64,000 nucleotides of DNA from Octopus vulgaris. Its lineage: Eukaryota. The DNA is taken from the NCBI GenBank assembly GCA_951406725.2, contig OX597814.1, positions 204,848,001 to 204,912,000 on the forward strand, written 5' to 3'. A program made the translations under genes and the position numbers. Positions 8,301-63,495 of this stretch are shown piece after piece. How positions within the stretch are numbered: the stretch's first letter is position 1; the number at the start of each line of letters is the position of its first letter. The notes under the pieces are model-generated. The model searched no databases. It was not told the origin of the DNA and saw only the letters and a list, made by a program, of their open reading frames with translations.

Positions 8301-9408
8301 CCCTTCCGTTTTGTCTTTCATCTTTTGTTACTTAAATGTTAGTGACGTTCATTAACAACAGGCAAAACTGTATGGTAAAACATTTGCTTCCCAACCCCGT
8401 GGCTCCAGGTTCAGTCCCTCACACCATGACTCCTTGGGCAAGTGTCTCCTACTATAAGCCTCGAGCCAATCATATTGGGAGTGGATTTGGTAAATGGAAA
8501 CTGAAAGGAACATCATCATCATCGTTTAACGTCTGCTTTACATGCTAGCATGGGTTGGACGATTTTGACTGAGGGCTGGCGAACCAGATGGCAGCACCAG
8601 GCTCCAATCTGATCTGGCAGAGTTTCTACAGCTGGATGCCCTTCCTAACGCCAACCACTCCGAGAGTGTAGTGGGTGCTTTTATGTGCCACAAGAACCTG
8701 TTGTATATATACATATGTGTGTCTGTGTGTGTGTGTCCCATCACCACTTGACAACCATTGTTGGTTCGTTTATGTCCCTGTAACTTAGTAGATTGTCATA
8801 AAAGACTGCTAGAGTAGGTACCCAGCTTAAAAGGAAAAGAGGGTATTGGGCTTGATTTGTTTGACTGAAAACTCTTCAACATGGTGTCCCAGCATGAAAC
8901 CAGTAAAAGGAAGAAGGTATCACATCATCATCATCGTCGTTGTTTAACGTCTGCTTTCCATGCTGGCATGGGTTGGACGGTTTGACTGAGGGCTGGCAAA
9001 CCAGGAGGCTGCACCAGGCTCAATCTGATCTGGCAAGGTTTCTACTGCTGGATGCCCTTCCTAATGCCAACCACTCCGAGAGTGTGGTGGGTGCTTTTTA
9101 CGTGCCACCAGCATGGGAGCCAGTGAGGTGGCACTGGTATTGATCACGTTTGGATGGTGCTTTTTACATGTCACTGGCACGGTCCAGTCAAGGTGGGTAG
9201 ACTGGCTTTTACCATGTTCGGCTGGTGCTTTTTACTTTCCACTGGCACAGGGAGCCAGTCAGGCGGCACTGGCATTGACCCATGCTTGAATGGTGCTTAT
9301 TACGTGCCACTAGCACGGGTGACAGTCAGGTGGTACTGGTATCGGCCACAACTACAATTTCTATTTTGATTTCAATCTTGATTTGATTTTGGTCAAGAAA
9401 AGGACACA

Positions 9409-27355: not shown

Positions 27356-28473
27356 AAGGCGGCGAGCTGGCAGAAACGTTAGCACGCCGGGCGAAATGCT
27401 TAGCAGTATTTCGTCTGCCGCTACATTCTGAGTTCAAATTCCGCTGAGGTCGACTTTGACTTTCATCCTTTTGGGGTCGATAAAATTAAGTACCAGTTAT
27501 GCACTGGGGTCGATGTCATCATCATCATCATCGTTTAACGTCCGTTCTCCATGCTAGCATGGGTTGGACGGTTCGACCGGGGATCTGGGAAGCCAGAAGG
27601 CTGCACCAGGCTCCGGTCTTATCTGGCAATGTTTCTACAGCTGGATGCCCTTCCTAATGCCAACCGCTCCGTGAGTGTAGTGGGTGCTTTTTACGTGCCA
27701 CCTGCACTGGTGCCAGGCGAGGCTGGCATCAGCCACGGTCGGATTGGTGCATTTTACGTGCCATCTGCATGGAAGCCAGTCGAGGCGGCACTGGCTTTGG
27801 CCACGATTCGGATGGTGCTTTTTACGTGACACCGACACGGAAGCCAGTCGAGGCAGCGCTGGCAATGGCCATGATTCGGATAGTGCTTTTTACGTATCTC
27901 CAGTCCAGGGGTCCTGGCATCTGCCGGGTGCCAGTCATAGGATTGGTTCAATTTTGATTCCGATTTCGATTTCACTTGCCCCAACAGGTCTTCGCAAGCA
28001 AAGTGGGGTTGGCATAGGTGCCTGTCGTCGGATGAGGTTCGATATCAACTTTGCTTGCCTCAACAGGTCTTTGTGTGTCCAAGGGAGAAAAGGCATGCAT
28101 TAGTGGGCTGATCTCACTTGTCCTGCCTGGTCTTTTTCACGCACAGCATATTTCCAAAGGTCTCGGTCGCTGGTCATTTCCTCAGTGAGACCTAAAGTTC
28201 GAAGGTCGTGCTTCACCACCTTGTCCCAAGTTTTCCTGGGTCTACCTCTTCCACGGGTTCCCTCCACTGCTAGGGATTGGCACTTTTTCACACACCTATC
28301 TTCATCCATTCTCGCCACATGACCATACCAGCGCAATCGTCTCTCTTGCACACCACAACTGATGCTCCTTAAGTCCAACATTTCTCTCAGGGTACTAACG
28401 CTCTGTCGAGCATGCACACTGACATTACGTTTGTCCCCTGTATGTTTAGCCCCTTGTGGGTAATAAAGAAACA
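27356..28473 (+). mobile_element. SINE family B interrupted by an RTE insertion
   Basis: 17-bp TSD gatatattttgaaatat (27339-27355 and 28474-28490); SINE 5' part runs to ~27515 and the 3' part resumes at ~28428. Confidence 0.85.
27517..28425 (-). mobile_element. 5'-truncated RTE-clade LINE (ORF C-terminus, 3'UTR, (GAT)n tail)
   Basis: ORF 28100-28417: QERRLRWYGHVARMDEDR...GTRGRGRPRKTWDKVVKHDLRTLGLTEEMTSDRDLW, typical of an RTE C-terminus. The 3'UTR has ~67-bp internal repeats. Confidence 0.9.
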
Positions 28474-35344: not shown

Positions 35345-36050
35345 CATCATAATCATCATCATCATCATCGTTTAGCGTCCGCTTTCCATGCTAGCATGGG
35401 TTGGACGGTTCGACGAGGGTCTGGGAAGCTAGGAGGCTGCATCAGGCCCAGTCTGATCTGGCAGTGTTTCTACAGCTGGATGCCCTTCCTAACGCCAACC
35501 ACTCCGTGAGTGTAGTGGGTGTTTTTTATGTGCCACCAGCACAGGGGCCAGAGGAGGCTGGCACCTGTGTAGTGGGTGTTTTTTATGTGCCACCAGCACA
35601 GGGGCCAGAGGAGGCTGGCACCTGTGTAGTGGGTGTTTTTTATGTGCCACCAGCACAGGGGCCAGAGGAGGCTGGCACCTGTGTAGTGGGTGTTTTTTAT
35701 GTGCCACCAGCACAGGGGCCAGAGGAGGCTGGCACCGGCCACGATTGGTTGGTGCACTTTTTATGTGCCACCGGCACAGAATCCAGTCAAGGCAGCGCTG
35801 GCATTGGCCATGTTTGGATGGTGTTTTTTTACATGCCACCTGCACGGGTATCACAACGACAATTTTATTTTGATGTTGATTTACTTGACTCAGTAGGTCT
35901 CCTCATGCACAGCAGGTCACCCTACAATCCAAGCTAAGCACAGCAGGTCACCCTACAATCCAAGGTACCTTGAATGGGCTGGGGCTGGTTATGTGAAGCT
36001 GGTGTAGGATACGCTGTGGACTCACTTTATTTGTCGGGTCTTCGCAGTCT
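35345..36050 (-). mobile_element. RTE 3' end with internal 57-bp x4 tandem expansion
   Basis: gtgtagtgggtgttttttatgtgccaccagcacaggggccagaggaggctggcacc repeated four times at ~35510-35737. Confidence 0.85.
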
Positions 36051-38820: not shown

Positions 38821-39842
38821 TGTTACGAACCACCTGCCGTCACTCAAACTCTTCGGAACCTGGGACCCTACCAAGTCGAGCGACGACGATTGACCGGCCC
38901 AGTCGAACGGGGAATTCGCCACGGAAAGAGAGGACTCGGTAGAGGAATGGCAGCGAACACGAACCGGCGACCGGAGAGAACAACAACAACAACAGCAGGA
39001 AGAGATACAGAGAGAGACGGCGGAAGGCAATTGGCTTACATTTAAAAACAGTTTATAACAATCATTACAATATCAGATACAGCAAAGAAAATACAAGCAA
39101 CAGAATCAACAAAATCAAAGGCATGCACGATGCAGTTCAATGTTCAAATCAGTTCAATTCACGATACAGTTCAAAGACAAATCAGAACAGTTCAATACAT
39201 TAAAGTCTTTCTCTTTCTTTCTTTCTCTTTAACACAGTTCTTTTCAATATTCATTTATTTTCTTCCTCTTTTCCTTAATTCACAAGTCTTTCTCCTTTTT
39301 TTTTGACACATCAATTCTTTTTTAGTTCAACAATTCTTTTTCCTCTTCATCACAGGTTACAATTTACGTCACAATTCTTCCTTTTACATTTCACATCAAA
39401 ACATAAACAACCAAAAGACACAAACAAAACTTTACTGAACGTTTTTTCCCAGTCTGCAACAATTTCAGAAACTCCTACTACAACAGCCATGCCTTCTATC
39501 CGCCGTAATCCCTCTCTTTTGCTCTCAGTCCTCTGTATGTCTTTCTCAACCTGTCGCTGCCTCGCCCTGTTGCCATTTCACTATCGCCACCTTCTTGGCT
39601 GACCGTCCATATCACTGCTGTCTTTGGCCAAAACTGACGACTGACTGACCACAAGCTCACAGCGCGTCGCATTTTAAGGAGTGGTTTCTCGAACTTTCCC
39701 TGACCGGAACAGGGCCAAAGGTCTCTTCCGAATACATAAATTTCCCCAGAAACCGACAGGACAAAAGGTTTTAGCTGTCTGCTTGATGCCAACTCACAAA
39801 AGTGGGTCATAGCACTCTGTTTCCGAACTAACCTCCATATCA
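38821..39842 (-). mobile_element. Probable solo LTR (~1.0 kb, Gypsy-like termini)
   Basis: TG...CA termini (tgttacgaac ... ctccatatca) with atat on both flanks inside a (TA)n tract. CpG-rich and unlike its surroundings; no coding capacity. Orientation is tentative. Confidence 0.6.
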
Positions 39843-39874
<32 letters not shown>

Positions 39875-39973
39875 AGGTATGTATATATGCAGCCATCTGG
39901 TTCACCAGTCAGTCAAATCATCCAAACCGTGCTAGCATGGAAACAATGATGATGATGTGTGTGTGTGTGTATA

Positions 39974-42900
39974 GGCATGTGAAAACCACCATTCAAGTGT
40001 ACCCGATGCCAGACTGGCCCTCGTGCCGTTGGTATATGAAAACCACCATTCAGGTGTACCCGATGTCAGTACTTCCTGACTGGCCCTCGTGCCGTTGGTA
40101 TATAAAAACCACCATTCAAGTGTACCCGATGCCAGAACTGCCTGACTGGCCCTCATACCGTTGGTATATGAAAACCACCATTCAAGTGTACCCGATGCCA
40201 GTACTACCTGACTGGCCCTAGTGTCGTGGGTATATGAAAACCACCATTCAAGTGTATTCGATGCCAGTACTGCCTGACTGGCCCTCGTGCTATTGGTATA
40301 TGAAAACCAATATTCAAGTGTACCCGATGCCAGTACTGCCTGACTGGCCCTCGTGCTATTGGTATATGAAAACCACCATTCAAGTGTACCCGATGCCAGT
40401 ACTGCCTGACTGGCCCTCGTATCGTTGGTATATGAAAACCACCATTCAAGTGTACCCAATGCCAGTACTACCTGACTGGCCCTAGTGTCGTTGGTATATG
40501 AAAACCACCATTCAAGTGTACCCGATGCCAGTACTACCTGACTGGCCCTCGTGCTATTGGTATATGAAAACCACCATTCAAGTGTATTCGATGCCAGTAA
40601 TACCTGACTAGCCCTCGTACCGTTGGTATATGAAAACCACCATTCAACTGTACCCGATGCCAGTACTGCCTGACTGGCCCTAGTGTCGTTGGTATATGAA
40701 AACCACCATTCAAGTGTACCCGATGCCAGTAATACCTGACTGGCCCTAGTGTCGTTGGTATATGAAAACCACCATTCAAGTGTACCCGATGCCAGTACTG
40801 CCTGACTGGCCCTCGTGCCGTTTGTATATGAAAACCACCATTCAAGTGTACCCGATGGCAGTACTACCTGACTGGCCCTCGTGCTATTGGTATATGAAAA
40901 CCACCATTCAAGTGTATTCGATGCCAGTACTGCCTGACTGGCCCTCGTGCTATTGGTATATGAAAACCACCATTCAAGTGTACCCGATGCCAGTACTACC
41001 TGACTGGCCCTCGTGCTATTGGTATATGAAAACCACCATTCAAGTGTATTCGATGCCAGTACTGCCTGACTGGCCCTCGTGCTATTGGTATATGAAAACC
41101 ACCATTCAAGTGTATTCGATGCCAGTACTGCCTGATTGGCCCTCGTGCTATTGGTATATGAAAACCAATATTCAAGTGTACCCGATGCCAGTACTGCCTG
41201 ACTGGCCCTCGTGCTATTGGTATATGAAAATCACCATTCAAGTGTACCCGATGCCAGTACTGCCTGACATGCCCTCGTGCTATTGGTATATGAAAACCAC
41301 CATTCAAGTGTACCTGATGCCAGTACTGCCTGACTGGCCCTAGTGTCGTTGGTATATGAAAACCACCATTCAAGTGTACCCGATGCCAGTACTGCCTGAC
41401 TTGCCCTCGTGCTATTGGTATATGAAAACCACCATTCAAGTGTACCCGATGCCAGTACTGCCTGACTGGGCCTCGTGCCGTTGGTATATGAAAACCACCA
41501 TTCAAGTGTACCCGATGCCAGTACTACCTGACTGGCCCTCGTACCGTTTGTATATGAAAACCACCATTCAAGTGTACCCGATGCCAGTACTGCCTGACTG
41601 GTCCTCGTGCCGTTGGTATATGAAAACCACCATTCAAGTGTACCCGATGCCAGTACTGCCTGACTGGCCCTAGTGTCGTTGGTATATGAAAACCACCATT
41701 CAAGTGTACCCGATGCCAGTACTACCTGACTGGCCCTCGTACCGTTTGTATATGAAAACCACCATTCAAGTGTACCCGATGCCAGTACTGCCTGACTGGT
41801 CCTCGTGCCGTTGGTATATGAAAACCACCATTCAAGTGTACCCGATGCCAGTACTGCCTGACTGGCCCTCGTACCGTTTGTATATGAAAACCACCATTCA
41901 AGTGTACCCGATGCCAGTAATACCTGACTGGCCCTCGAACCGTTGATATATGAAAACCACCATTCAAGTGTACCCGATGCCAGTACTGCCTGACTGGCCC
42001 TCGTACCGTTGGTATATGAAAACCAACATTCAAGTGTACCCGATTTCAGTACTGCCTGACTGGCCCTCGTACCGTTTGTATATGAAAACCACCATTCAAG
42101 TGTACCCGATGCCAGTACTGCCTGACTGGCCCTCGTACCGTTGGTATATGAAAACCACCATTCAAGTGTACCCGATGCCAGTACAGCCTGACTAGCCCTC
42201 GTGCCGTTGGTATATGAAAACCACCATTCAAGTGTACCCAATGCCAGTACTGCCTGACTGGCCCTCGTACCGTTTGTATATGAAAACCACCATTCAAGTG
42301 TACCCGATGCCAGTACTGCCTGACTGGCCCTCGTACCGTTTGGTATATGAAAACCACCATTCAAGTGTACCCGATGCCAGTACTGCCTGACTGGCCCTCG
42401 TACCGTTGGTATATGAAAACCACCATTCAAGTGTACCCGATGCCAGTACAGCCTGACTGGCCCTCGTACCGTTTGTATATGAAAACCACCATTCAAGTGT
42501 ACCCGATGCCAGTACTGCCTGACTGGCCCTCGTACCGTTGGTATATGAAAACCACCATTCAAGTGTACCCGATGCCAGTACTGCCTGACTGGCCCTCGTA
42601 CCGTTTGTATATGAAAACCACCATTCAAGTGTACCCGATGCCAGTACTGCCTGATTGGCCCTAGTGTCGTTGGTATATGAAAACCACCATTCAAGTGTAT
42701 TCGATGCCAGTACTGGCTGACTGGCCCTCGTGCTATTGGTATATGAAAACCACCATTCAAGTGTATTCGATGCCAGTACTGCCTGACTGGCCCTCGTGCT
42801 ATTGGTATATGAAAACCACCATTCAAGTGTACCCGATGCCAGTACTACCTGACTGGCCCTCGTGCTATTGGTATATGAAAACCACCATTCAAGTGTATTC

Positions 42901-45900
42901 GATGCCAGTACTGCCTGACTGGCCCTCGTGCTATTGGTATATGAAAACCACCATTCAAGTGTACCCGATGCCAGTACTACCTGACTGGCCCTCGTGCTAT
43001 TGGTATATGAAAACCACCATTCAAGTGTATTCGATGCCAGTACTGCCTGACTGGCCCTCGTGCTATTGGTATATGAAAACCACCATTCAAGTGTATTCGA
43101 TGCCAGTACTGCCTGATTGGCCCTCGTGCTATTGGTATATGAAAACCAATATTCAAGTGTACCCGATGCCAGTACTGCCTGACTGGCCCTCGTGCTATTG
43201 GTATATGAAAATCACCATTCAAGTGTACCCGATGCCAGTACTGCCTGACATGCCCTCGTGCTATTGGTATATGAAAACCACCATTCAAGTGTACCTGATG
43301 CCAGTACTGCCTGACTGGCCCTAGTGTCGTTGGTATATGAAAACCACCATTCAAGTGTACCCGATGCCAGTACTGCCTGACTTGCCCTCGTGCTATTGGT
43401 ATATGAAAACCACCATTCAAGTGTACCCGATGCCAGTACTGCCTGACTGGGCCTCGTGCCGTTGGTATATGAAAACCACCATTCAAGTGTACCCGATGCC
43501 AGTACTACCTGACTGGCCCTCGTACCGTTTGTATATGAAAACCACCATTCAAGTGTACCCGATGCCAGTACTGCCTGACTGGTCCTCGTGCCGTTGGTAT
43601 ATGAAAACCACCATTCAAGTGTACCCGATGCCAGTACTGCCTGACTGGCCCTAGTGTCGTTGGTATATGAAAACCACCATTCAAGTGTACCCGATGCCAG
43701 TACTACCTGACTGGCCCTCGTACCGTTTGTATATGAAAACCACCATTCAAGTGTACCCGATGCCAGTACTGCCTGACTGGTCCTCGTGCCGTTGGTATAT
43801 GAAAACCACCATTCAAGTGTACCCGATGCCAGTACTGCCTGACTGGTCCTCGTGCCGTTGGTATATGAAAACCACCATTCAAGTGTACCCGATGCCAGTA
43901 CTGCCTGACTGGCCCTCGTACCGTTTGTATATGAAAACCACCATTCAAGTGTACCCGATGCCAGTAATACCTGACTGGCCCTCGAACCGTTGATATATGA
44001 AAACCACCATTCAAGTGTACCCGATGCCAGTACTGCCTGACTGGCCCTCGTACCGTTGGTATATGAAAACCAACATTCAAGTGTACCCGATTTCAGTACT
44101 GCCTGACTGGCCCTCGTACCGTTCGTATATGAAAACCACCATTCAAGTGTACCCGATGCCAGTACTGCCTGACTGGCCCTCGTACCGTTGGTATATGAAA
44201 ACCACCATTCAAGTGTACCCGATGCCAGTACAGCCTGACTAGCCCTCGTGCCGTTGGTATATGAAAACCACCATTCAAGTGTACCCAATGCCAGTACTGC
44301 CTGACTGGCCCTCGTACCGTTTGTATATGAAAACCACCATTCAAGTGTACCCGATGCCAGTACTGCCTGACTGGCCCTCGAACCGTTTGTATATGAAAAC
44401 CACCATTCAAGTGTACCCGATGCCAGTACTGCCTGACTGGCCCTCGTACCGTTGGTATATGAAAACCACCATTCAAGTGTACCCGATGCCAGTACAGCCT
44501 GACTGGCCCTCGTACCGTTTGTATATGAAAACCACCATTCAAGTGTACCCGATGCCAGTACTGCCTGACTGGCCCTCGTACCGTTGGTATATGAAAACCA
44601 CCATTCAAGTGTACCCGATGCCAGTACTGCCTGACTGGCCCTCGTACCGTTTGTATATGAAAACCACCATTCAAGTGTACCCGATTCCAGTACTGCCTGA
44701 TTGGCCCTAGTGTCGTTGGTATATGAAAACCACCATTCAAGTGTACCCGATGCCAGTACTACCTGACTGGCCCTCGTACCGTTTGTATATGAAAACCACC
44801 ATTCAAGTGTACCCGATGCCAGTACTGCCTGACTGGTCCTCGTGCCGTTGGTATATGAAAACCACCATTCAAGTGTACCCGATGCCAGTACTGCCTGACT
44901 GGTCCTCGTGCCGTTGGTATATGAAAACCACCATTCAAGTGTACCCGATGCCAGTACTGCCTGACTGGCCCTCGTACCGTTTGTATATGAAAACCACCAT
45001 TCAAGTGTACCCGATGCCAGTAATACCTGACTGGCCCTCGAACCGTTGATATATGAAAACCACCATTCAAGTGTACCCGATGCCAGTACTGCCTGACTGG
45101 CCCTCGTACCGTTGGTATATGAAAACCAACATTCAAGTGTACCCGATTTCAGTACTGCCTGACTGGCCCTCGTACCGTTTGTATATGAAAACCACCATTC
45201 AAGTGTACCCGATGCCAGTACTGCCTGACTGGCCCTCGTGCCGTTGGTATATGAAAACCACCATTCAAGTGTACCCGATGCCAGTACTGCCTGACTGGCC
45301 CTAGTGTCGTTGGTATATGAAAACCACCATTCAAGTGTACCCGATGCCAGTACTACCTGACTGGCCCTCGTACCGTTTGTATATGAAAACCACCATTCAA
45401 GTGTACCCGATGCCAGTACTGCCTGACTGGTCCTCGTGCCGTTGGTATATGAAAACCACCATTCAAGTGTACCCGATGCCAGTACTGCCTGACTGGTCCT
45501 CGTGCCGTTGGTATATGAAAACCACCATTCAAGTGTACCCGATGCCAGTACTGCCTGACTGGCCCTCTTACCGTTTGTATATGAAAACCACCATTCAAGT
45601 GTACCCGATGCCAGTAATACCTGACTGGCACTCGAACCGTTGATATATGAAAACCACCATTCAAGTGTACCCGATGCCAGTACTGCCTGACTGGCCATCG
45701 TACCGTTGGTATATGAAAACCAACATTCAAGTGTACCCGATTTCAGTACTGCCTGACTGGCCCTCGTACCGTTTGTATATGAAAACCACCATTCAAGTGT
45801 ACCCGATGCCAGTACTGCCTGACTTGCCCTCGTACCGTTTGTATATGAAAACCACCATTCAAGTGCACCCGATGCCAGTACTGCCCGACTAGCCCTCGTG

Positions 45901-48900
45901 CCGTTGGTATATGAAAACCACCATTCAAGTGTACCCGATGCCAGTACTGCCTGACTGGCCCTCGTACCGTTTGTATATGAAAACCACCATTCAAGTGTAC
46001 CCGATGCCAGTACTGCCTGACTGGCCCTCGAACCGTTTGTATATGAAAACCACCATTCAAGTGTACCCGATGCCAGTACTGCCTGACTGGCCCTCGTACC
46101 GTTGGTATCTGAAAACCACCATTCAAGTGTACCCGATGCCAGTACAGCCTGACTGGCCCTCGTACCGTTTGTATATGAAAACCACCATTCAAGTGTACCC
46201 GATGCCAGTACTGCCTGACTGGCCCTCGTACCGTTGGTATATGAAAACCACCATTCAAGTGTACCCGATGCCAGTACTGCCTGACTGGCCCTCGTACCGT
46301 TTGTATATGAAAACCACCATTCAAGTGTACCCGATGCCAGTACTGCCTGACTGGCCCTCGTACCGTTGATATATGAAAACCAACATTCAAGTGTACCCGA
46401 TGCCAGTACTGCCTGACTGGCCCTCGTACCGTTGGTATATGAAAACCACCATTCGAGTGTACCCGATGCCAGTACTTCCTGACTGGCCCTCGTACCGTTG
46501 ATATATGAAAACCAACATTCAAGTGTACCCGATGCCAGTACTGCCTGACTGGCCCTCGTACCGTTTGTATATGAAAACCACCATTCAAGTGTACCCGATG
46601 CCAGTACTGCCTGACTGGCCCTCGTACCGTTGGTATATGAAAACCAACATTCAAGTGTACCCGATGCCAGTACTGCCTGACTGGCCCTCGTACCGTTTGT
46701 ATATGAAAACCACCATTCAAGTGTACCCGATGCCAGTACTGCCTGACTGGCCCTCGTACCGTTGATATATGAAAACCAACATTCAAGTGTACCCGATGCC
46801 AGTACTGCCTGACTGGCCCTCGTACCGTTTGCATATGAAAACCCCCATTCGAGTGTACCCGATGCCAGTACTTCCTGACTGGCCCTCGTACCGTTGATAT
46901 ATGAAAACCAACATTCAAGTGTACCCGATGCCAGTACTGCCTGACTGGCCCTCGTACTGTTTGTATATGAAAACCACCATTCAAGTGTACCCGATGCCAG
47001 TACTGCCTGACTGGGCCTCGTGCCGTTGGTATATGAAAACCACCATTCAAGTGTACCCGATGCCAGTACTACCTGACTGGCCCTCGTACCGTTTGTATAT
47101 GAAAACCACCATTCAAGTGTACCCGATGCCAGTACTGCCTGACTGGTCCTCGTGCCGTTGGTATATGAAAACCACCATTCAAGTGTACCCGATGCCAGTA
47201 CTGCCTGACTGGCCCTAGTGTCGTTGGTATATGAAAACCACCATTCAAATGTACCCGATGCCAGTACTACCTGACTGGCCCTCGTACCGTTTGTATATGA
47301 AAACCACCATTCAAGTGTACCCGATGCCAGTACTGCCTGACTGGTCCTCGTGCCGTTGGTATATGAAAACCACCATTCAAGTGTACCCGATGCCAGTACT
47401 GCCTGACTGGTCCTCGTGCCGTTGGTATATGAAAACCACCATTCAAGTGTACCCGATGCCAGTACTGCCTGACTGGCCCTCGTACAGTTTGTATATGAAA
47501 ACCACCATTCAAGTGTACCCGATGCCAGTAATACCTGACTGGCCCTCGAACCGTTGATATATGAAAACCACCATTCAAGTGTACCCGATGCCAGTACTGC
47601 CTGACTGGCCCTCGTACCGTTGGTATATGAAAACCAACATTCAAGTGTACCCGATTTCAGTACTGCCTGACTGGCCCTCGTACCGTTTGTATATGAAAAC
47701 CACCATTCAAGTGTACCCGATGCCAGTACTGCCAGACTGGCCCTCGTACCGTTGGTATATGAAAACCACCATTCAAGTGTACCCGATGCCAGTACAGCCT
47801 GACTAGCCCTCGTGCCGTTGGTATATGAAAACCACCATTCAAGTGTACCCGATGCCAGTACTGCCTGACTGGCCCTCGTACCGTTTGTATATGAAAACCA
47901 CCATTCAAGTGTACCCGATGCCAGTACTGCCTGACTGGCCCTCGAACCGTTTGTATATGAAAACCACCATTCAAGTGTACCCGATGCCAGTACTGCCTGA
48001 CTGGCCCTCATACCGTTGGTATATGAAAACCACCATTCAAGTGTACCCAATGCCAGTACAGCCTGACTGGCCCTCGTACCGTTTGTATATGAAAACCACC
48101 ATTCAAGTGCACCCGATGCCAGTACTGCCTGACTGGCCCTCGTACCGTTGGTATATGAAAACCACCATTCAAGTGTACCCGATGCCAGTACTGCCTGACT
48201 GGCCCTCGTACCGTTTGTATATGAAAACCACCATTCAAGTGTACCCGATGCCAGTACTGCCTGACTGGCCCTCGTACCGTTGATATATGAAAACCACCAT
48301 TCAAGTGTACCCGATGCCAGTACTGCCTGACTGGCCCTCGTACCGTTTGTATATGAAAACCACCATTCGAGTGTACCCGATGACAGTACTTCCTGACTGG
48401 CCCTCGTACCGTTGATATATGAAAACCACCATTCAAGTGTACCCGATGCCAGTACTACCTGACTGGCCCTCGTACCGTTTGTATATGAAAACCACCATTC
48501 AAGTGTACCCGATGCCAGTACTGCCTGACTGGTCCTCGTGCCGTTGGTATATGAAAACCACCATTCAAGTGTACCCGATGCCAGTACTGCCTGACTGGCC
48601 CTAGTGTCGTTGGTATATGAAAACCACCATTCAAGTGTACCCGATGCCAGTACTACCTGACTGGCCCTCGTACCGTTTGTATATGAAAACCACCATTCAA
48701 GTGTACCCGATGCCAGTACTGCCTGACTGGTCCTCGTGCCGTTGGTATATGAAAACCACCATTCAAGTGTACCCGATGCCAGTACTGCCTGACTGGCCCT
48801 CGTACCGTTGGTATATGAAAACCACCATTCAAGTGTACCCGATGCCAGTACTGCCTGACTAGCCCTCGTGCCGTTGGTATATGAAAACCACCATTCAAGT

Positions 48901-51013
48901 GTACCCGATGCCAGTACTGCCTGACTGGCCCTCGTACCGTTTGTATATGAAAACCACCATTCAAGTGTACCCGATGCCAGTACTGCCTGACTGGCCCTCG
49001 AACCGTTTGTATATGAAAACCACCATTCAAGTGTACCCGATGCCAGTACTGCCTGACTGGCCCTCGTACCGTTGGTATATGAAAACCACCATTCAAGTGT
49101 ACCCGATGCCAGTACAGCCTGACTGGCCCTCGTACCGTTTGTATATGAAAACCACCATTCAAGTGTACCCGATGCCAGTACTGCCTGACTGGCCCTCGTA
49201 CCGTTGGTATATGAAAACCACCATTCAAGTGTACCCGATGGCAGTACTGCCTGACTGGCCCTCGTACCGTTTGTATATGAAAACCACCATTCAAGTGTAC
49301 CCGATGCCAGTACTGCCTGACTGGCCCTCGTACCGTTGATATATGAAAACCACCATTCAAGTATACCCGATGCCAGTACTACCTGTCTGGCCCTCGTGCT
49401 ATTGGTATATGAAAACCACCATTCAAGTGTACCCGATGCCAGTACTACCTGTCTGGCCCTCGTGCTATTGGTATATGAAAACCACCATTCATGTGTACCC
49501 GATGCCAGTACTACCTGTCTGGCCCTCGTGCTATTGGTATATGAAAACCACCATTCAAGTGTACCCGATGCCAGTACTTCCTGACTGGCCCTAATGTCGT
49601 TGGTATATGAAAACCACCATTCAAGTGTACCCGATGCCAGTATTGCCTGACTGGCCCTCGTACCGTCGGTATATGAAAACCCCAATTCAAGTGTACCCGG
49701 TGCCAGTACTGCCTGACTGGCCCTCGTGCCGTTTGTATATGAAAACCACCATTCAAGTGTACCCGATGCCAGTACTGCCTGACTGGCCCTCGTGACGTTG
49801 GTATATGAAAACCACCATTCAAGTGTACCCGATGCCAGTACTACCTGACTGGCCCTCGTGCCGTTGGTATATGACAACCACCATTCAAGTGTACCCGATG
49901 CCTGTACTACGTGACTGGCCCTCGTCCCGTTGGTATATGAAAACCACCATTCAAGTGTACCCGATGCCAGTTCTACCTGACTGGCCCTCGTGCCGTTGGT
50001 ATATGAAAACCACCATTCAAGTGTACCCGATGCCAGTACTGCCTGACTTGCCCTCGTACCGTTTGTATATGAAAACCACCATTCAAGTGTACCCGATGCC
50101 AGTTCTACCTGACTGGCCCTCGTACTGTTGGTATATGAAAACCACCATTCAAATGTACCCGATGCCAGTACTGCCCGACTAGCCCTCGTGCCGTTTGTAT
50201 ATGAAAACCACCATTCAAGTGCACCCGATGCCAGTACTGCCCGACTAGCCCTCGTGCCGTTGGTATATGAAAACCACCATTCAAGTGCACCCGATGCCAG
50301 TACTGCCTGACTGGCCCTCGTGCAGTTGGTTTATGAAAACCACCATTCAATTGTACCCGATGCCAGTACTTCCTGACTGGCCCTAGTGTCGTTGGTATAT
50401 GAAAACCACCATTCAAGTGTACCCGATGCCAGTACTTCCGGACTGGCCCTAGTGTCGTTGGTATATGAAAACCACCATTCAAGTGTACCCGATGCCAGTA
50501 CTTCCGGACTGGCCCTAGTGTCGTTGGTATATGAAAACCACCATTCAAGTGTACCCGATGCCAGTACTACCTGTCTGGCCCTCGTACCGTTGGTATATGA
50601 AAACCACCATTCAAGTGTACCCGATGCCAGTACTTCCGGACTGGCCCTCGTGCCGTTGGTATATGAAAACCACCATTCAAGTGTACCCGATGCCAGTACT
50701 ACCTGTCTGGCCCTCGTACCGTTGGTATATGAAAACCACCATTCAAGTGTACCCGATGCCAGTACTTCCGGACTGGCCCTCGTGCTATTGGTATATGAAA
50801 ACCACCATTCATGTGTACCCGATGCCAGTACTGCCTGACTGGCCCTCGTGCCGTTGGTATATGAAAACCACCATTCAAGTGTACCCGATGCCAGTACTGC
50901 CTGACTGGCCCTCGTACCGTTGGTATATGAAAACCACCATTCAAGTGTACCCGATGCCTGTACTGCCTGGCTGGCCCTCGTGCCGTTGGTATATGAAAAC
51001 CACCATTCAAGTG
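39974..51013 (+). repeat. 66-bp tandem satellite array, ~167 units, with higher-order structure
   Basis: Unit gtatatgaaaaccaccattcaagtgtacccgatgccagtactgcctgactggccctcgt(a/g)ccgttg; 22-aa periodic ORFs; one visible 1-bp insertion near 42341. Confidence 0.98.
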
Positions 51014-51340
51014 GCACGTAAATGCACCATCCAAACATGGTCACGTATTGGCTTCCGTGTCGGTGGCACATAAAAGCACCCACTACACTCTCGGAGTGTT
51101 TGGCAAATGCACCATCCAAACATGGTCCATGCTAGGTCTGCCTGATTGGCTTCCGTGTCGGTGGCACATAAAAAGCACCCACTACACTCTCGGAGTGTTT
51201 GGCATTAGGAAGGACATCCTGCTGGAGAAACTCTGCCAGATCAAGATTGGAGCCTGGGACAGCTGCTGGTTCTCCAGATGTCAGTCAAACCATCCAACCC
51301 ATGCCAGCATGGAAAGCGGACGTTAGACAATGATGATGAT
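51014..51340 (+). mobile_element. RTE 3' end contiguous with the 66-bp array
   Basis: gcacccactacactctcggagt...catccaacccatgccagcatggaaagcggacgttagacaatgatgatgat. Confidence 0.85.
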
Positions 51341-52025
51341 TATAAATATGTGTGTGTGTGTGTATATCTCCATCACCATCATTTAGTGTTCACTTTTCCA
51401 CGCTTGTATGCATCAGAGTGAATTTCATTGAGGCAAATTTTCTACATCCATATGCTCTTCATCTTGTCAACTCTCGCCTATTTATAAGCAAAATGACATT
51501 TCTCCATACCCTGACATATTTTACTGCAGATTGGAAACGAACAACTTTTCTCGTATGACTGATGCTCATTTACAATCATCATGTGATGCCTAGACAGGAG
51601 CACACACGAATACACAATGGGTTTGTTTTAGTTTCCATCTACCAAATCTACTTGAGTCTTTGGTTGATCCAGGGCTGTAGAAGATGCCTTGCCCAGTGCC
51701 AGTCTCTAACTGTGCAGGGAACAACCTGTGGAAAAAGTAGACTCAGGAAAGACGAGGGATGAAGTGGTGGAATATGATGTTTGGATGTTGAGTCTCACAG
51801 AGGCAATGACAAGGGACGAAGACTGTTAGTGGTTTGCTGTGTGGGAAAAGACATCAAGTTAAGTGAAACTGTAGGTGTGACCAGTCAGGGACATGCAAAA
51901 GGCACCTGGTACACTCTGTGGAGTGGTTGGTATTAGGAAGGGTTCCAGCTGTAGACATGAATCCAAACCAGACTGATGCCTGGCGCAGCTGTCTGGTTTA
52001 CCAGTTCTAATGAAACCATCTAAGC

Positions 52026-54872: not shown

Positions 54873-57800
54873 GTTCTTTCCAAGCGGGCCTCATGGAGGT
54901 GAGGTGACTGAGTCCCTTCAAAGCGGGTCTCATGGAGGTTAGGTGACTGCGTTCCTTCCAAGTGGGCCTCATGGAGGTGAAGTGATTGAGTTCCTTCCAA
55001 GCAGGCCTCATGGAGGTGAGGTGACTGAGTCCCTTCCAAGCGGGCCTCATGTAGGTGAAATGACAGAGTTACTTCCAAGCGGGCCTCATGGAGGTGAGGT
55101 GACTGAGTCCCTTCCAAGCGGGCCTCATGTAGGTGAAATGACAGAGTTACTTCCAAGCGGGCCTCATGGAGGTGAGGTGACTGAGTCCCTTTCAAGCGGG
55201 CCTCATGTAGGTGAGTTGACTGAGTTACTTCCAAGCGGGCCTCATGTAGGTGAGGTGACTGAGTCCCTTCCAAGCGGGCCTCATGGAGGTGAGGTGACTG
55301 AGTTCCTTCCAAGCGGGCCTCATGTAGGTGAGTTGACTGAGTTACTTCCAAGCGGGCCTCATGTAGGTGAGGTGACTGAGTCCCTTCCAAGCGGGCCTCA
55401 TGTAGGTGAGGTGACTGAGTCCCTTCCAAGCAGGCCTCATGGAGGTGAGGTGACTGAGTTCCTTCCAAGCGGGCCTCATGTAGATGAGGTGACTGAGTCC
55501 CTTCCAAGCAGGCCTCATGGAGGTTAGGTGACTGCGTTCCTTCCAAGTGGGCCTCATGGAGGTGAAGTGATTGAGTTCCTTCCAAGCAGGCCTCTTGGAG
55601 GAGATGTGATTGAGTTCCTTCCAAGCGGGCCTCATGGAGGTGAGGTGACTGAGTCCCTTCCAAGCGGGCCTCGTGTAGGTGAAATGACAGAGTTACTTCC
55701 AAGCGGGCCTCATGTAGGTGAGGTGACTGAGTCCCTTTCAAGCGGGCCTCATGTAGGTGAGTTGACTGAGTTACTTCCAAGCGGGCCTCATGTAGGTGAG
55801 GTGACTGAGTCCCTTCCAAGTGGGCCTCATGGAGGTGAGGTGACTGAGTTCCTTCCAAGCGGGCCTCATGTAGGTGAGGTGACTGAGTCCCTACCAAGCG
55901 GGCTCATGTAGGTGAGGTGACTGAGTTCCTTCCAAGTGGGCCTCATGGAGGTGAGGTGACTGAGTCCCTTCCAAGCGGGCCTCATGTTGGTTAGGTGACT
56001 GCGTTCCTTCCAAGTGGGCCTCATGGAGGTGAGGTGATTGAGTTCCTTCCAAGCGGGCCTCATGTAGGTGAGGTGACTGAATCCCTTCCAAGCAGGCCTC
56101 ATGGAGGTGAGGTGACTGAGTTCCTTCCAAGCGGGCCTCATGGAGGTGAGGTGACTGAGTCCCTTCCAAGTGGACCTATGTAGGTGAGGTGACTGAGTTA
56201 CTTCCAAGCGGGCCTCATGGAGGTGAGGTGACTGAGTCCCTTCCAAGCGGGCCTCATGTAGGTGAAATGACAGAGTTACTTCCAAGCGGGCCTCATGGAG
56301 GTGAGGTGACTGAGTCCCTTTCAAGCGGGCCTCATGTAGGTGAGTTGACTGAGTTACTTCCAAGCGGGCCTCATGTAGGTGAGGTGACTGAGTCCCTTCC
56401 AAGCGGGCCTCATGGAGGTGAGGTGACTGAGTTCCTTCCAAGCGGGCCTCATGTAGGTGAGTTGACTGAGTTACTTCCAAGCGGGCCTCATGTAGGTGAG
56501 GTGACTGAATCCCTTCCAAGCGGGCCTCATGTAGGTGAGGTGACTGAGTCCCTTCCAAGCAGGCCTCATGGAGGTGAGGTGACTGAGTTCCTTCCAAGCG
56601 GGCCTCATGTAGATGAGGTGACTGAGTCCCTTCCAAGCGGGCCTCATGGAGGTTAGGTGACTGCGTTCCTTCCAAGTGGGCCTCATGGAGGTGAAGTGAT
56701 TGAGTTCCTTCCAAGCAGGCCTCTTGGAGGAGATGTGATTGAGTTCCTTCCAAGCGGGCCTCTGGGAGGTGAGGTGACTGAGTCCCTTCCAAGCGGGCCT
56801 CGTGTAGGTGAAATGACAGAGTTACTTCCAAGCGGGCCTCATGTAGGTGAGGTGACTGAGTCCCTTTCAAGCGGGCCTCATGTAGGTGAGGTGACTGAGT
56901 TACTTCCAAGCGGGCCTCATGTAGGTGAGGTGACTGAGTCCCTTCCAAGTGGGCCTCATGGAGGTGAGGTGACTGAGTTCCTTCCAAGCGGGCCTCATGT
57001 AGGTGAGGTGACTGAGTCCCTACCAAGCGGGCTCATGTAGGTGAGGTGACTGAGTTCCTTCCAAGTGGGCCTCATGGAGGTGAGGTGACTGAGTCCCTTC
57101 CAAGCGGGCCTCATGTTGGTTAGGTGACTGCGTTCCTTCCAAGTGGGCCTCATGGAGGTGAGGTGATTGAGTTCCTTCCAAGCGGGCCTCATGTAGGTGA
57201 GGTGACTGAATCCCTTCCAAGCAGGCCTCATGGAGGTGAGGTGACTGAGTTCCTTCCAAGCGGGCCTCATGGAGGTGAGGTGACTGAGTCCCTTCCAAGT
57301 GGACCTATGTAGGTGAGGTGACTGAGTCCCTTCCAAGCGGGCCTCATGGAGGTTAGGTGACTGCGTTCCTTCCAAGTGGGTCTCATGTAGGTGAGTTGAC
57401 TGAGTCCCTTCCAAGCAGGTCTCATGTTGGTTAGGTGACTGCGTTCCTTCCAAGTGGGCCTCATGGAGGTGAGGTGATTGAGTTCCTTCCAAGCGGGCCT
57501 CATGTAGGTGAGGTGACTGAATCCCTTCCAAGCAGGCCTCATGGAGGTGAGGTGACTGAGTCCCTTCCAAGCAGGTCTCATGTAGGTGAGGTGACTGAGT
57601 CCCTTCCAAGCGGGCCTCATGTTGGTTAGGTGACTGCGTTCCTTCCAAGTGGGCCTCATGGAGGTGAGGTGATTGAGTTCCTTCCAAGCGGGCCTCATGT
57701 AGGTGAGGTGACTGAATCCCTTCCAAGCAGGCCTCATGGAGGTTAGGTGACTGAGTTCCTTCCAAGTGGGCCTCATGGAGGTGAGGTGACTGAGTCCCTT

Positions 57801-58169
57801 CCAAGCAGACCTATGTAGGTGAGGTACTGAGTCCCTTCCAAGCGGGCCTCATGGAGGTTAGGTGACTGCGTTCCTTCCAAGTGGGTCTCATGTAGGTGAG
57901 GTGACTGAGTCCCTTCCAAGCGGGCCTCATGGAGGTTAGGTGACTGCGTTCCTTCCAAGTGGGCCTCATGGAGGTGAAGTGATTGAGTTCCTTCCAAGCA
58001 GGCCTCTTGGAGGAGAGGTGATTGAGTTCCTTTCAAGCGGGCCTCATGGAGGGGAGGTGACTGAGTCCCTTCCAAGCAGGCCTCTTGGAGGAGAGGTGAT
58101 TGAGTTCCTTCGAAGCGGGCCTCATATAGGTGAGGTGAATGAGTTCCTTTCAAGCGGGCATCATGGAGG
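54873..58169 (+). repeat. 39-bp tandem array, ~84 units
   Basis: Unit gagtcccttccaagcgggcctcatg(g/t)aggtgaggtgact; 13-aa periodic ORFs; higher-order duplication with a 1129-bp offset. Confidence 0.98.
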
Positions 58170-58517
58170 CAAAATGGCCGCGATCCTTTTGAATGTTGGG
58201 TATCACGAAGACAATGTCCAAGACCTTTGGCATTATGTTGTGCTTGAGAAGAAGACCTATCAAGCTGAGCAAAATTGCAGTCATGGCAGATACTGGAGTC
58301 ACACAAATGGCACCTGTGCCGGTGACATGTAAAAAGCACCCATTACACTCTTGGAGTCGTTGGTGTTAGGAAGGGCTTCCAGCTGTACGAACCTTGCCAG
58401 ATCAGATTGGAACATGGTGCAGCCTTCCAGTGTGCCAGCCTAGTCAAACCATCCAACCCATGCCAGCATGGGCAATGGATGTTAAATGATGATGATGATG
58501 ATGATGACGATGATGAT
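58170..58517 (+). mobile_element. RTE 3' end contiguous with the 39-bp array
   Basis: gacctttggcattatgttgtgcttgagaag (ORF end), 3'UTR and (GAT)n tail. Confidence 0.85.
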
Positions 58518-59439
58518 TATTACCTTTCTTCTGGCTTTATATTCTCAGTTCAAATGCTACCACGGTGAACTTTGCCTTTCATCTTTCAGGGTCAGTGAAA
58601 TAAGTGACAGTTGAGCATTGGGGGGGGGGGTTGATATAATTGATTAACCTTCTTCCTTAAAAGTTTAGGCCTTGTGCCTATAGTAGAAAGGATTATTATT
58701 ATTTTTTTTCTTCTTTACTACCCACAAGGGGCTACACATAGAGGGGACAAACAAGGACAGACAAAGGGATGAAGTCGATTACATCGACCCCAGTGCGTAA
58801 CTGGTACTTAATTTATCAACCTTGAAAGGATGAAAGGCAACCTCTGCGGAATTTGAACTCAGAACGTAACAGCAGATGAAATATGGCTACGCATTTCACC
58901 CGGCGTGCTAACAGTTCTGCCAGCTCACTGCCTTAATAATAATAATAATTATTATTATTCCTAATAATAATAATTATTATTATTATCTCCCATGCTCTCT
59001 ATTGGACAGTTTGCGAATATGTCTGATCTCATGAATGTGTATCACTCTTTTTTTTACAACTATGTATGTATGCATCTATTTATCTATCTGTCTGTCTGTC
59101 TACTTAGCAAATATGTCCAGTCAGTAGTGTGTGTCCCCTACTCCTTGTCTTGACCATTAGTCAGGATAGGGAGCAGAGACCAACACAAATTACATCAGTT
59201 ACTCCAACCTGCCACTGTATTACTTTAGCCTCATCCACCACTTCTCATTATTCATGCCCTCCAAACTGCCCCCCTAGCCAACCATGAGCTGTGCTACCCT
59301 TCCTATTACTGATCTATGAACGTCCTAAGAAGTTTTATAGAGAGACATGTCACCTCAACCAGCCAAATAGACCTCCCAGTATGCTGTAAGCTTGCCCTCC
59401 ATTCCTGTCAAACAATACATCAGCTTCGCCACAGCACCC

Positions 59440-62417: not shown

Positions 62418-62744
62418 CCTGCTTTGGCTGTAGTCTAATGACTGAAACAGGTAAAAGAGAAAATGTACTGCTTTCTAGTGAGAGGATCAGAAATGTAATA
62501 TTGCAAAGAAATATGGCAAAAAGGACCAAAACGTTGATTAAAATGTGTGTCAGATAAGACAGAGAGGTGTCATATCCAATGACTGGCATAGCAATATTGT
62601 CATTGAGTACTGTCATGGCAAGAGCATTTATTTGAAGGATCAGGTTATGAAACATTTATCCCTTTCCATGCCAACCCGGCTGAAACCACCTCTGGTTCTG
62701 TTGTACAAATGTCTTGTTTTTATAAGTTTTGAATTAAAATTATG

Positions 62745-63495
62745 TTGGACATAAGAAGCATCGGATGTGGCGTGCAAGAGAGACGTTTGCATTAGTATGG
62801 TCATGTACTGTGGATGGATTAGGAGAGCTGTGTGAAGAAGTGCCACTCCCAAACAGTGGAAGGAATCTGGGGTAGAGGGAGACCCAGGAAGCCATGGGAT
62901 GAGGTGGTGAAGCATGACCTCGGAACATTGGGCCTCACAGAGGCAATAACAAAAGACCGAGACCTCTGGAGATATGCTGTGACTGAGAAGACCCAGCAAA
63001 TAAAGTGAATTCACAGCTGTAACCTACACCAGTGTCACATAACCAGCCAACTCAAAAGTCCCCTTGGATCTTGGGTGACATTCCGTGCTTGAGGAGACCT
63101 ACTGAGTCAAGTAAATCAAAATCAAAATCAAATCACAATCAAATGGAAACTGTAGTTAAGATCCCTGTGCCGGTGGCACGTAAAAAGCACCACCCAAATG
63201 TGGCTGATGCCAGCGCTGACTTGACTGGCTTTTGTGCCGGTGGCATGTAAAAAGCACCATCCGATTATGGTCGATGCCAGCCCCCTCTGGCCTCTGTGCC
63301 AGTGGCATGCAAAAAGCACCCACTAGACTTTCGGAGTGGTTGGCGTTAGGAAGGGCACCCAGCTGTAGAAACACTGCCAGATCAGACTGGAGCCTGGTGC
63401 AGCCTCCTGGCTTCACAGACCCCAGTTGAACTGTCCAACCCATGCTAGCATGGAAAACGGACGTTAAATGATGATGATGATGATGATGATGATGA
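62745..63495 (+). mobile_element. RTE-clade LINE 3' fragment (degenerate ORF end plus 3'UTR)
   Basis: Homologous to 27517-28425; ~67-bp internal UTR repeat at 63167/63234; (GAT)n tail. Confidence 0.85.

Follow-up and report, generated by a model that had tools for sequence, protein, structure and literature searches.

Within the window analysed here, a stretch of 64,000 nucleotides from the genome of Octopus vulgaris, a satellite array of 66-bp units occupies positions 39974–51013 of the plus strand, directly upstream of a LINE tail. TRF called the array at 40007–51013 with a period of 66, 166.8 copies, 94% matches, and 0% indels, bearing out the initial annotation on this point, and reading the sequence itself places the true start at 39974, within a unit, so that the array is truncated at its 5' end. 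Anchoring yielded 168 anchors delimiting 167 units, of which 165 measure 66 bp, one 57 bp, and one 67 bp, with a 94% match between adjacent copies. The 165 full-length units fall into 76 distinct types, have a mean pairwise identity of 93.3%, and lie 4.1% from their own majority sequence. The minus strand of the array contains long open frames, one of them 2372 aa in length, because the 66-nt period is divisible by three; a coding role for the 2372-aa frame was considered and rejected, as the period accounts for it.

Comparison of the order of unit types showed that a block of about 26 units at 40896–42612 (plus strand) is repeated at 42877–44658. In the first part of the block, units 15–28 equal units 45–58 with 0 differences in 924 bp, and in the second part, units 28–40 correspond to units 59–71 with 2 differences in 858 bp. 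The block score is 14, whereas shuffling the unit order 200 times gave at most 4.

On its downstream side, the array runs straight into the remnant of a LINE 3'UTR and a (GAT)n tail in the same orientation, as had been described initially: the sequence at 51014–51345 aligns with other tails in the window at 71–86% (best E value 8e-64). The tail itself (51170–51340, plus strand), closed by (GAT)3 at 51332–51340, contains predicted terminal and inner hairpins; its fold is not better than shuffles (z = 0.68), and across tails and units three of four folded sequences were no better than shuffles. Its best match is the tail of another array (89%), and it is identical to the tail of an intact-ORF copy, L037, at 139 of 165 positions. 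Between array and tail lies the last non-amplified UTR unit with the start of the tail (51014–51204, plus strand). Here, 51020–51204 is a local tandem duplication of that unit and tail start (51020–51104 and 51105–51204, 85% over 100 columns), and the join to the array is out of register, with approximately 41–42 nt of a unit missing and a GTG microhomology at 51011–51013. The unit adjacent to the tail (51105–51170) shares only 43 of 66 positions with the array units.

Upstream of the array is a short, separate LINE tail fragment ending in (GAT)3 (39888–39956, plus strand), also expected from the earlier reading; its portion 39888–39943 aligns with other tails in the window at 74–91%, and it shares its orientation with the array and the array's own tail. 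An exact 19-nt direct repeat brackets the array and tail. The left copy (39955–39973, plus strand), consisting of (TG)n and TATA, abuts the 5' edge of the element, and the right copy (51348–51366, plus strand) begins 7 nt past the GAT tail. A search of both strands found this 19-mer only at 39955 and 51348 in the window. We regard it as a candidate target-site duplication (TSD) that is suggestive only, because it is of low complexity.

The source of the unit appears to be the 3'UTR repeat of a dispersed LINE. The initial annotation had aligned the unit to the repeat at 63167–63233 at about 48 of 67 positions by eye, and the count proved exact: 48 of 67 positions are identical, with a score of 55 against a mean of 5.3 and a maximum of 21 in 300 dinucleotide shuffles (z = 14.2). 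Seven other units in the window gave z values of 8.7–13.5, and five of six units taken from other loci were identical to the array unit at 52–55 of 66–67 positions. Judged from these alignments, the array monomer is homologous to the 66–68-bp repeat in the 3'UTR of this RTE-like LINE. The window also holds three informative copies of the element: an ordinary UTR copy with a few units and a tail (63167–63495, plus strand), preceded by a remnant of the ORF C-terminus at 62733–63005; a young 5'-truncated copy (27518–28426, minus strand) whose ORF C-terminus is 96% identical to that of L037 and whose UTR has four anchors; and an older-type copy with 3.7 units (8927–9345, minus strand). In the last of these, the unit type amplified in the array is represented by the 5'-most unit, and the type that remains in front of the array's tail by the 3'-most one.

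The donor LINE has a single long ORF encoding an AP endonuclease and a reverse transcriptase (copies L037 and L038, the latter with a frame of 1033 aa). Two domains of L037 score above the Pfam cut-offs, Exo_endo_phos (E = 3e-6) and RVT_1 (E = 3e-32), and PHD scores below its cut-off. A PHD-like finger follows the RT core, and the UTR is 540–880 nt long with 66–68-bp repeats. No shared ORF was seen in the roughly 1.4–1.7 kb compared upstream of the main ORF in six copies, but homology between these copies ends near the ORF start. Young copies end in (GAT)n and not in poly(A), and 28 of 29 distinct ORF-bearing loci have 3–7 repeat anchors between the ORF's end and the tail (the set comprised 30 rows, including one duplicate and one read as N). 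Clear TSDs are rare in the family: matches of at least 12 nt within 25 nt of the 5' end were found in four of the 30 rows (L030, L043, L049, and L050), all of them TA/TG microsatellites. The label RTE used in the initial annotation holds as far as architecture is concerned, given the single endonuclease/RT ORF and the simple-repeat tail; as a putative clade label it stands on this architecture and on a C-terminal motif that we take to be of RTE type. The protein homologues retrieved included no named RTE references and bore uninformative names, and the sole Pfam match to the 107-aa C-terminal piece was an AT-hook below threshold.

The amplified unit is confined to this locus. A 34-nt array signature had 159 matches genome-wide at up to two mismatches, and all 159 lie inside the array. 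The best match to two units outside the array is 84% over 98 nt (39 scored of 825 candidates), the nearest unit among 41 other arrays is 77% identical, and neither the signature search nor the two-unit search recovered a dispersed array fragment. Six other loci share 31-mers with the array, but at 1–4 words these are too few to represent array copies. The array therefore does not behave like a mobile, SVA-like array, its nearest unit elsewhere being 77% and its nearest tail 89% identical, nor like a classical satellite, whose monomer would recur at several loci or fill very large blocks of heterochromatin, as it comprises one locus of 11 kb. The initial proposal that array fragments could be retrotransposed thus finds no counterpart in the assembly. 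The array copy is 5'-truncated and therefore without an ORF or promoter of its own, and its mobilisation would need a host transcript and a reverse transcriptase acting in trans.

Public sequencing runs speak to whether the array is real DNA. Their contigs are short, with none bridging the locus, and contig depth is a rough guide only. Exact array-specific contigs had depths of 1980 in run X2, 487–675 in X6, and 546–750 in X7, and flank contigs had depths of 16–32 in X2 and 11–12 in X6. Array-specific words in X2 and X6 thus stand at approximately 40–120 times flank depth, where 76–105 times is expected from the window, and their high depth in four public runs shows that the array is real. It is extremely unlikely that the array is, wholly or for part of its length, an assembly artefact. 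The 924-bp block repeated with zero differences is what a false duplication would look like, and the depth ratio in X6 is about half of that expected from the assembly, but the 76 distinct unit types with their structured variation and the depths in X2 and X6 weigh against such an origin; for the whole array it is impossible, and an excess length of 1–2 kb may be conceivable. The junction at 51023–51042 had no coverage at 98% in any of the four runs, a hole that proves nothing, and at 88% the comparison was dominated by the LINE's other copies. For run X3, a summed depth of 116,000–135,000 suggested a giant expansion to thousands of copies, but this reading was discarded: the summed depth is inflated because short contigs overlap, and variant contigs at 820–1,650 against a flank of 43–64 are of the assembly's order.

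The array's own variation bears on how it came to be long. Compared with the majority of the 22 closest units from short copies, the array unit differs at 11 columns, nine of which are near-universal in the array, each of these fixed or near-fixed changes being present in 155–165 of 165 units. The 5' edge of the array retains an ancestral C and an ancestral G that are each absent from 164 of the 165 full units. The array's tail differs by 11% from the relative closest to it and by 13% from the majority sequence of 30 tails, and the units, at 4.1% from their majority, are far more alike than the decay of the tail would allow. Across 30 arrays, unit divergence follows tail divergence (Spearman 0.66, p = 8e-5), a correlation that is partly subfamily structure. 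The 11-kb array occupies the UTR-repeat slot of a 5'-truncated copy of the RTE-like LINE, and we consider it very probable that it grew there once the copy had inserted, through duplication, at the DNA level, of a single unit that already carried mutations. The initial suggestion that the satellite arose in place from a minisatellite of a LINE UTR is well supported by the homology, the private unit, its nine changes, and the likeness of the units. Some features fit this growth in place less comfortably: the junction is out of register with a dissimilar adjacent unit, the candidate TSD is a microsatellite with a 7-nt offset, and the array unit stands 11/66 from its relatives' majority while the 22 pool units average 6.8/66, so that extra change during turnover must be assumed. 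Nor did the short public contigs show an empty or unexpanded allele.

An array already long in the RNA, from a long parent or from slippage of the reverse transcriptase on the repeats, and inserted in one step with its tail is very unlikely. The 19-nt direct repeat flanks array and tail together, but a TSD is equally expected if a short copy was inserted and lengthened afterwards. Scattered unit changes on a level with their own tail decay occur in a few other arrays, of 9–35 units; in some arrays (L064, L077, L083, L090, and L094) the changes are, by eye, scattered and unshared, and these may already have been long when inserted or shortly thereafter. Human SVA copies with VNTRs of more than 4 kb are also described (PMC10681720). 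The present units, however, lie 4% from their majority against a tail decay of 11–13%, young ORF-bearing copies hold only 3–7 anchors, and the assembly contains neither a parent nor a sibling.

The out-of-register junction at a GTG microhomology, and the difference in type between the array unit and the next unit (43/66), could also be read as a pre-existing satellite that template switching or recombination had attached to an unrelated LINE tail. We hold this to be highly improbable: the array unit is homologous to the UTR repeat and present nowhere else, the order of unit types is that of ordinary copies such as 8927–9345, 34 of 41 other arrays fill the same slot, and a deletion of 41–42 nt explains the junction.

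Growth in place implies no function, and the locus has the appearance of neutral repeat DNA. Maintenance by selection, for instance as a regulatory or chromatin element, might be argued from the array's depth, which is high in runs that carry four organism labels, and from the constant 66-bp length of 165 of 167 units, but we consider it very unlikely, since the unit forms no other long array and many different variants form long arrays elsewhere, as neutral turnover predicts. The predicted fold of two array units is no better than that of shuffles (z = -0.55), and the minus-strand frames follow from the period.

Under growth in place, the RNA of an older subfamily would have been reverse-transcribed from its (GAT)n tail, stopping in the UTR repeats and leaving a few hundred bases within a TG microsatellite. 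Private changes would then have arisen in one unit, and the pattern of their array-wide fixation is visible in the present sequence. This unit may have been multiplied and homogenised through slippage and through unequal exchange, either of sister chromatids or of homologues, and the duplications of multi-unit blocks show that the process was active until recently. The tail would be a passive neighbour that dates the insertion, and dozens of other copies would have gone through the same process independently, every one with a unit variant of its own.

The elements of a transposon-derived satellite are present: a monomer homologous to a transposable element, a fixed slot and orientation with a short repeat in most copies, and a homogenised array with variants of its own. 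Since its signature is found nowhere else in the assembly, we class the array as a further instance of an already known path to satellite DNA and not as a mobile satellite, and it parallels Ogre. Tandem repeats in the 3'UTR of this LTR retrotransposon gave rise to satellites in Lathyrus sativus (PMC7004042) and to PisTR-A in pea (PMC9659126), and the two systems share short 3'UTR tandem repeats in a dispersed retrotransposon, mostly short arrays of which few expand, and repeats that differ by subfamily. Unlike Ogre as described there, the octopus carrier is an animal non-LTR LINE, each array has a private unit and a dating tail, and the arrays found reach at most 11 kb and are scattered over many contigs, whereas those of Ogre form much longer blocks in primary constrictions. 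The hominid SVA VNTR is similar in belonging to an element mobilised by TPRT whose internal repeat changes length after insertion and can be hit by 5' truncation (PMC10681720), but SVA is non-autonomous and composite with long VNTRs in active copies, while the octopus repeat sits in the UTR of an autonomous LINE, the long arrays seen lying in decayed copies. The common cetacean satellite (from the 3' part of L1), chicken HinfI (CR1), and Drosophila 18HT are listed as LINE-derived, and the central repeats of Helitron DINE elements appear in the same listing (PMC9659126); all resemble the present case in deriving from the 3' non-coding region or internal repeats of a transposon. In that listing, the monomers from cetaceans and chicken are fragments of LINE sequence, whereas the octopus array is an expanded pre-existing minisatellite with its own tail attached at one locus. 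RTE-clade LINEs, including octopus RTE-2_OV, likewise have a single endonuclease/RT ORF, a simple-repeat 3' tail, and many 5'-truncated copies (PMC9115989, PMC2887409); RTE-2_OV is described with a C2H2 finger and a mostly microsatellite 3'UTR, against the PHD-like finger and 66–68-bp repeats of the donor LINE. Our literature search found no RTE-derived or octopus case of a satellite from 3'UTR repeats, and with this array the Ogre 3'UTR model, drawn from LTR elements of plants, also covers a LINE in an animal.

The initial annotation treated the array as a special case, a view that did not survive comparison with other loci. Among 43 other loci chosen for long arrays, 41 carry arrays of 6–106 units with periods of 55–72 bp, the remaining two having dimer periods; 15 of the 41 have at least 20 units, and the present array is the longest of those found. 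The census is biased toward long arrays, and its counts are a lower bound, as 40 candidates per DNA query were scored. Of the 41, 34 terminate in the LINE tail. In the 28 other arrays with upstream DNA, no array-edge match exceeded 10 nt, the one 17-nt match lying 208 nt away. Satellite origins are usually inferred from end products, and here the same seed has grown separately at dozens of loci, with stages between 3 and 167 units within one assembly. These replicate expansions, with the tail as a neutral clock, make the birth rate, genomic context, and homogenisation speed of satellites measurable.

We raise tentatively, as a possibility we rather doubt, that the LINE lineage is a genome-wide seeder of satellites, in which unstable 3'UTR repeats evolve repeatedly and spread in tens of thousands of copies, local chromosomal context selects which of them explode, and some medium arrays may have travelled already long. 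If true, it would offer many replicate satellite births from one seed, each datable by its tail.

A second, independent satellite of 39 bp × 84.7 copies lies 3.9 kb downstream of the 66-bp array (54873–58518, plus strand). It continues into the UTR and tail of a further subfamily within this LINE lineage and derives from a different UTR repeat of the lineage. The repeat kinds of the lineage include units of 66–68 bp, units of 39–42 bp, and a longer block in young copies, and in this window two unrelated seeds, no more than 4 kb apart, have grown into arrays of 11 kb and 3.3 kb.

The 66-bp satellite at 39974-51013 (forward strand) runs into a LINE 3'UTR tail that closes in (GAT)3. TRF reports 40007-51013 as a single array of period 66, with 166.8 copies and 94% matches, and splitting at a fixed anchor word gave 167 units, of which 165 are exactly 66 bp long; the units fall into 76 types with a mean pairwise identity of 93.3%. 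The 5' edge, at 39974, lies within a unit. As we read the sequence, ~41-42 nt of a unit are skipped across a GTG where array meets tail, and the last unit and the start of the tail are duplicated locally at the 3' side of the array. When three natural array units were compared to the UTR repeat unit of an ordinary LINE copy in the window (63167-63233), 48 identities were obtained (z=14.2, 300 shuffles), and seven other window units tested against the array unit yielded z=8.7-13.5. The 3' side of the array aligns with other window tails at 71-86%; 39888-39956 is a separate short tail fragment. The initial annotation was correct on the array, its UTR-repeat homology and its adjoining tail.

Part of 50600-51700 is present in 20 of 24 listed public sequencing runs, from 10 studies. 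Five runs were compared, the best-matching one being omitted from the second comparison as a possible source, and the four runs of that comparison bear four organism labels. Exact array-specific contigs reached a depth of 1980 in run X2, where flank contigs had 16-32, and of 487-675 in X6, where the flank had 11-12; in X7 they had 546-750 (no flank value), and array-variant contigs in X3 had a depth of 820-1,650 (flank 43-64); array-specific words occur ~76-105 times each in the window. This shows the array to be real DNA of tens to about a hundred copies, a range rather than an exact length because contig depth is only a rough guide. In X3, a contig of single-copy depth over 51105-51162 fits the second duplicated unit except for its first two letters, which hints weakly that this sample lacks the 51020-51204 duplication.

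The 27518-28426 copy in the window includes an ORF C-terminus, for which the 2.8-Gb genome yielded 51,312 first-look candidates, 150 of which were scored. One related locus, L037, has an open frame of 1091 codons with Exo_endo_phos and RVT_1 above the Pfam cut-offs and a sub-threshold PHD match after the RT core; this layout is common to its homologues, whose names are uninformative. Among 30 rows representing 29 distinct loci, picked as best matches or for long frames, 28 loci have a UTR with 3-7 repeat anchors followed by the tail and (GAT)n, and one reads N. RTE elements, as outlined in PMC2887409, have a single ORF, an endonuclease and RT, a simple-repeat tail and truncated copies, and our donor LINE fits this outline; from this architectural fit we call it RTE-like. 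Nine young, ORF-bearing copies (L039, L040, L049-L052, L054-L056) have a different, longer UTR block in two or three copies, so new tandem units continue to arise in the UTR. At the ORF start, L038 and L055 have a pyrimidine tract plus CAG where L037 and L046 begin; the site resembles a splice acceptor, and the donor element may have a 5' intron.

Compared with the majority sequence of 22 units taken from the nearest short-copy loci, a pool chosen for likeness to the array, the array majority is changed at 11 of 66 columns; nine of these changes occur in 155-165 of the 165 units, and two are still mixed. Divergence of the units from their own majority is 4.1%; the tail diverges by 11% from its nearest relative and by 13% from a majority of 30 tails. 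Had the array been inserted whole, it would show the same decay as its tail, which argues against such an insertion and supports growth of the array after decay of the LINE copy. Array edges are expected to escape homogenisation, and in keeping with this the 5' edge retains an ancestral C and G, each absent from 164 of 165 full units. Units 15-28 equal units 45-58 with zero differences in 924 bp, and units 28-40 recur as 59-71 with two differences (block-repeat score 14, against a maximum of 4 in 200 shuffles). Provided that the rate of 0.0036 per million years given in PMC13282606 holds here, a very rough date for insertion of the LINE would be 15-40 million years ago; the exact 924-bp block, unless it is a false duplication, would be under half a million years old. 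A direct repeat of 19 nt, a candidate TSD, adjoins the 5' edge and recurs 7 nt after the tail, its only two occurrences in the window; it is, however, one of 22 TG runs, and few copies of this LINE family have a clean TSD. Insertion would have been by TPRT, with 5' truncation within the UTR repeats, and the unit would have been amplified by slippage and unequal exchange.

A 34-nt array signature, allowing at most two mismatches, has 159 matches in the genome, all on the forward strand, and the window alone accounts for 159; the reversed control signature has no match in the genome. A two-unit DNA search returned nothing above 84% among the best 39 of 825 candidates, and the closest unit among 41 other arrays is 77% identical. 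With the signature confined to the window and no close unit among the sequences compared, the suggestion that array fragments could be retrotransposed finds no support in this assembly, in which no dispersed piece was found. The inner hairpin of the tail is still predicted, so mobilisation is conceivable, with no sign of its having happened.

Ten-unit queries from two other arrays gave long matches on many contigs, the best 40 of ~7,400 candidates being scored for each. A set of 43 loci was assembled from 40 of these and three from another search, whose four short loci and two flanks were left out; in 41 the array has a period of 55-72 bp and 6-106 units, and the other two show dimer periods. 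Fifteen of the 41 arrays have at least 20 units. Thirty-four of the 41 are closed by the tail in the same orientation; two of the other seven leave the fetched stretch, two pass into further units and three break off in unrelated DNA. Unit majorities have a mean identity of 82% over 861 pairs, and near-identical unit pairs all belong to one younger subfamily, with tails at most 97% alike. Among 20 listed arrays inspected by eye, most show patterns private to their locus; five, with scattered changes, may already have been long at the outset. The window array is the longest seen, followed by L057 (C5:56657500-56666500, 106 units, ending abruptly without a tail), L018 (contig C9, 96 units, with a remnant of the endonuclease domain upstream, fused to the UTR) and L060 (contig C19, 84 units), all three built from different units. 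Five loci (L061, L067, L082, L095, L096) have alternating two-unit repeats with periods of 129-134, which are higher-order repeats in the making. L068 and L081, ~7 kb apart on contig C31 in opposite orientation, have 5' and 3' flanks in common and are a local duplicate pair, not independent births.

The position in the UTR slot, the homology, the private fixed changes, the block duplications and the recurrence at other loci, together with absence of the unit elsewhere, are direct observations, and they support the proposed origin of the satellite from a LINE UTR minisatellite. We consider it highly probable that the array grew in the UTR slot of a truncated RTE-like LINE after insertion, presumably by slippage and unequal exchange. 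In the text of PMC7004042, nine of eleven Lathyrus satellites derive from short tandem repeats in Ogre 3'UTRs, occasionally expanded; the process is the same as in octopus, but in an LTR element. SVA VNTRs are described as changing after insertion (PMC10681720). PMC9659126 lists satellites related to a LINE 3'UTR, and PMC9115989 describes octopus RTE-2_OV; the word "RTE" is absent from the main text of the first and "tandem" from that of the second. The main text of PMC13282606 leaves LINE-derived satellites unmentioned. Our literature search found neither satellites from RTE UTR repeats nor the present octopus case described, and most subscription papers, supplements and repeat libraries, which lay outside its reach, may contain one. 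The chief value of the system is that it offers replicate satellite births, each datable; that the LINE lineage acts as a context-triggered satellite seeder is a tentative idea which we rate as somewhat improbable.

The window contains a second satellite (54873-58169), which stems from the 39/42-bp UTR repeat of a different subfamily; within 54873-58518, 84.7 copies of 39 bp run into the UTR and tail of a LINE. This 39/42-bp unit is also present, at few copies, in all seven further loci read (2.7-5.3 copies by TRF in six), three of which have ORF C-terminal remnants upstream of it. The two UTR-repeat expansions are independent of each other and lie 3.9 kb apart. Since few long arrays are known, two within 4 kb may point to a local hot spot, in a census that is a lower bound. 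Another UTR copy, at 35510-35736, contains four identical 57-bp deletion-variant units and is a very recent small expansion. Between TA microsatellites, a ~1-kb segment at 38822-39841 starts with TG and ends with CA, a pattern from which we take it to resemble a solo LTR.
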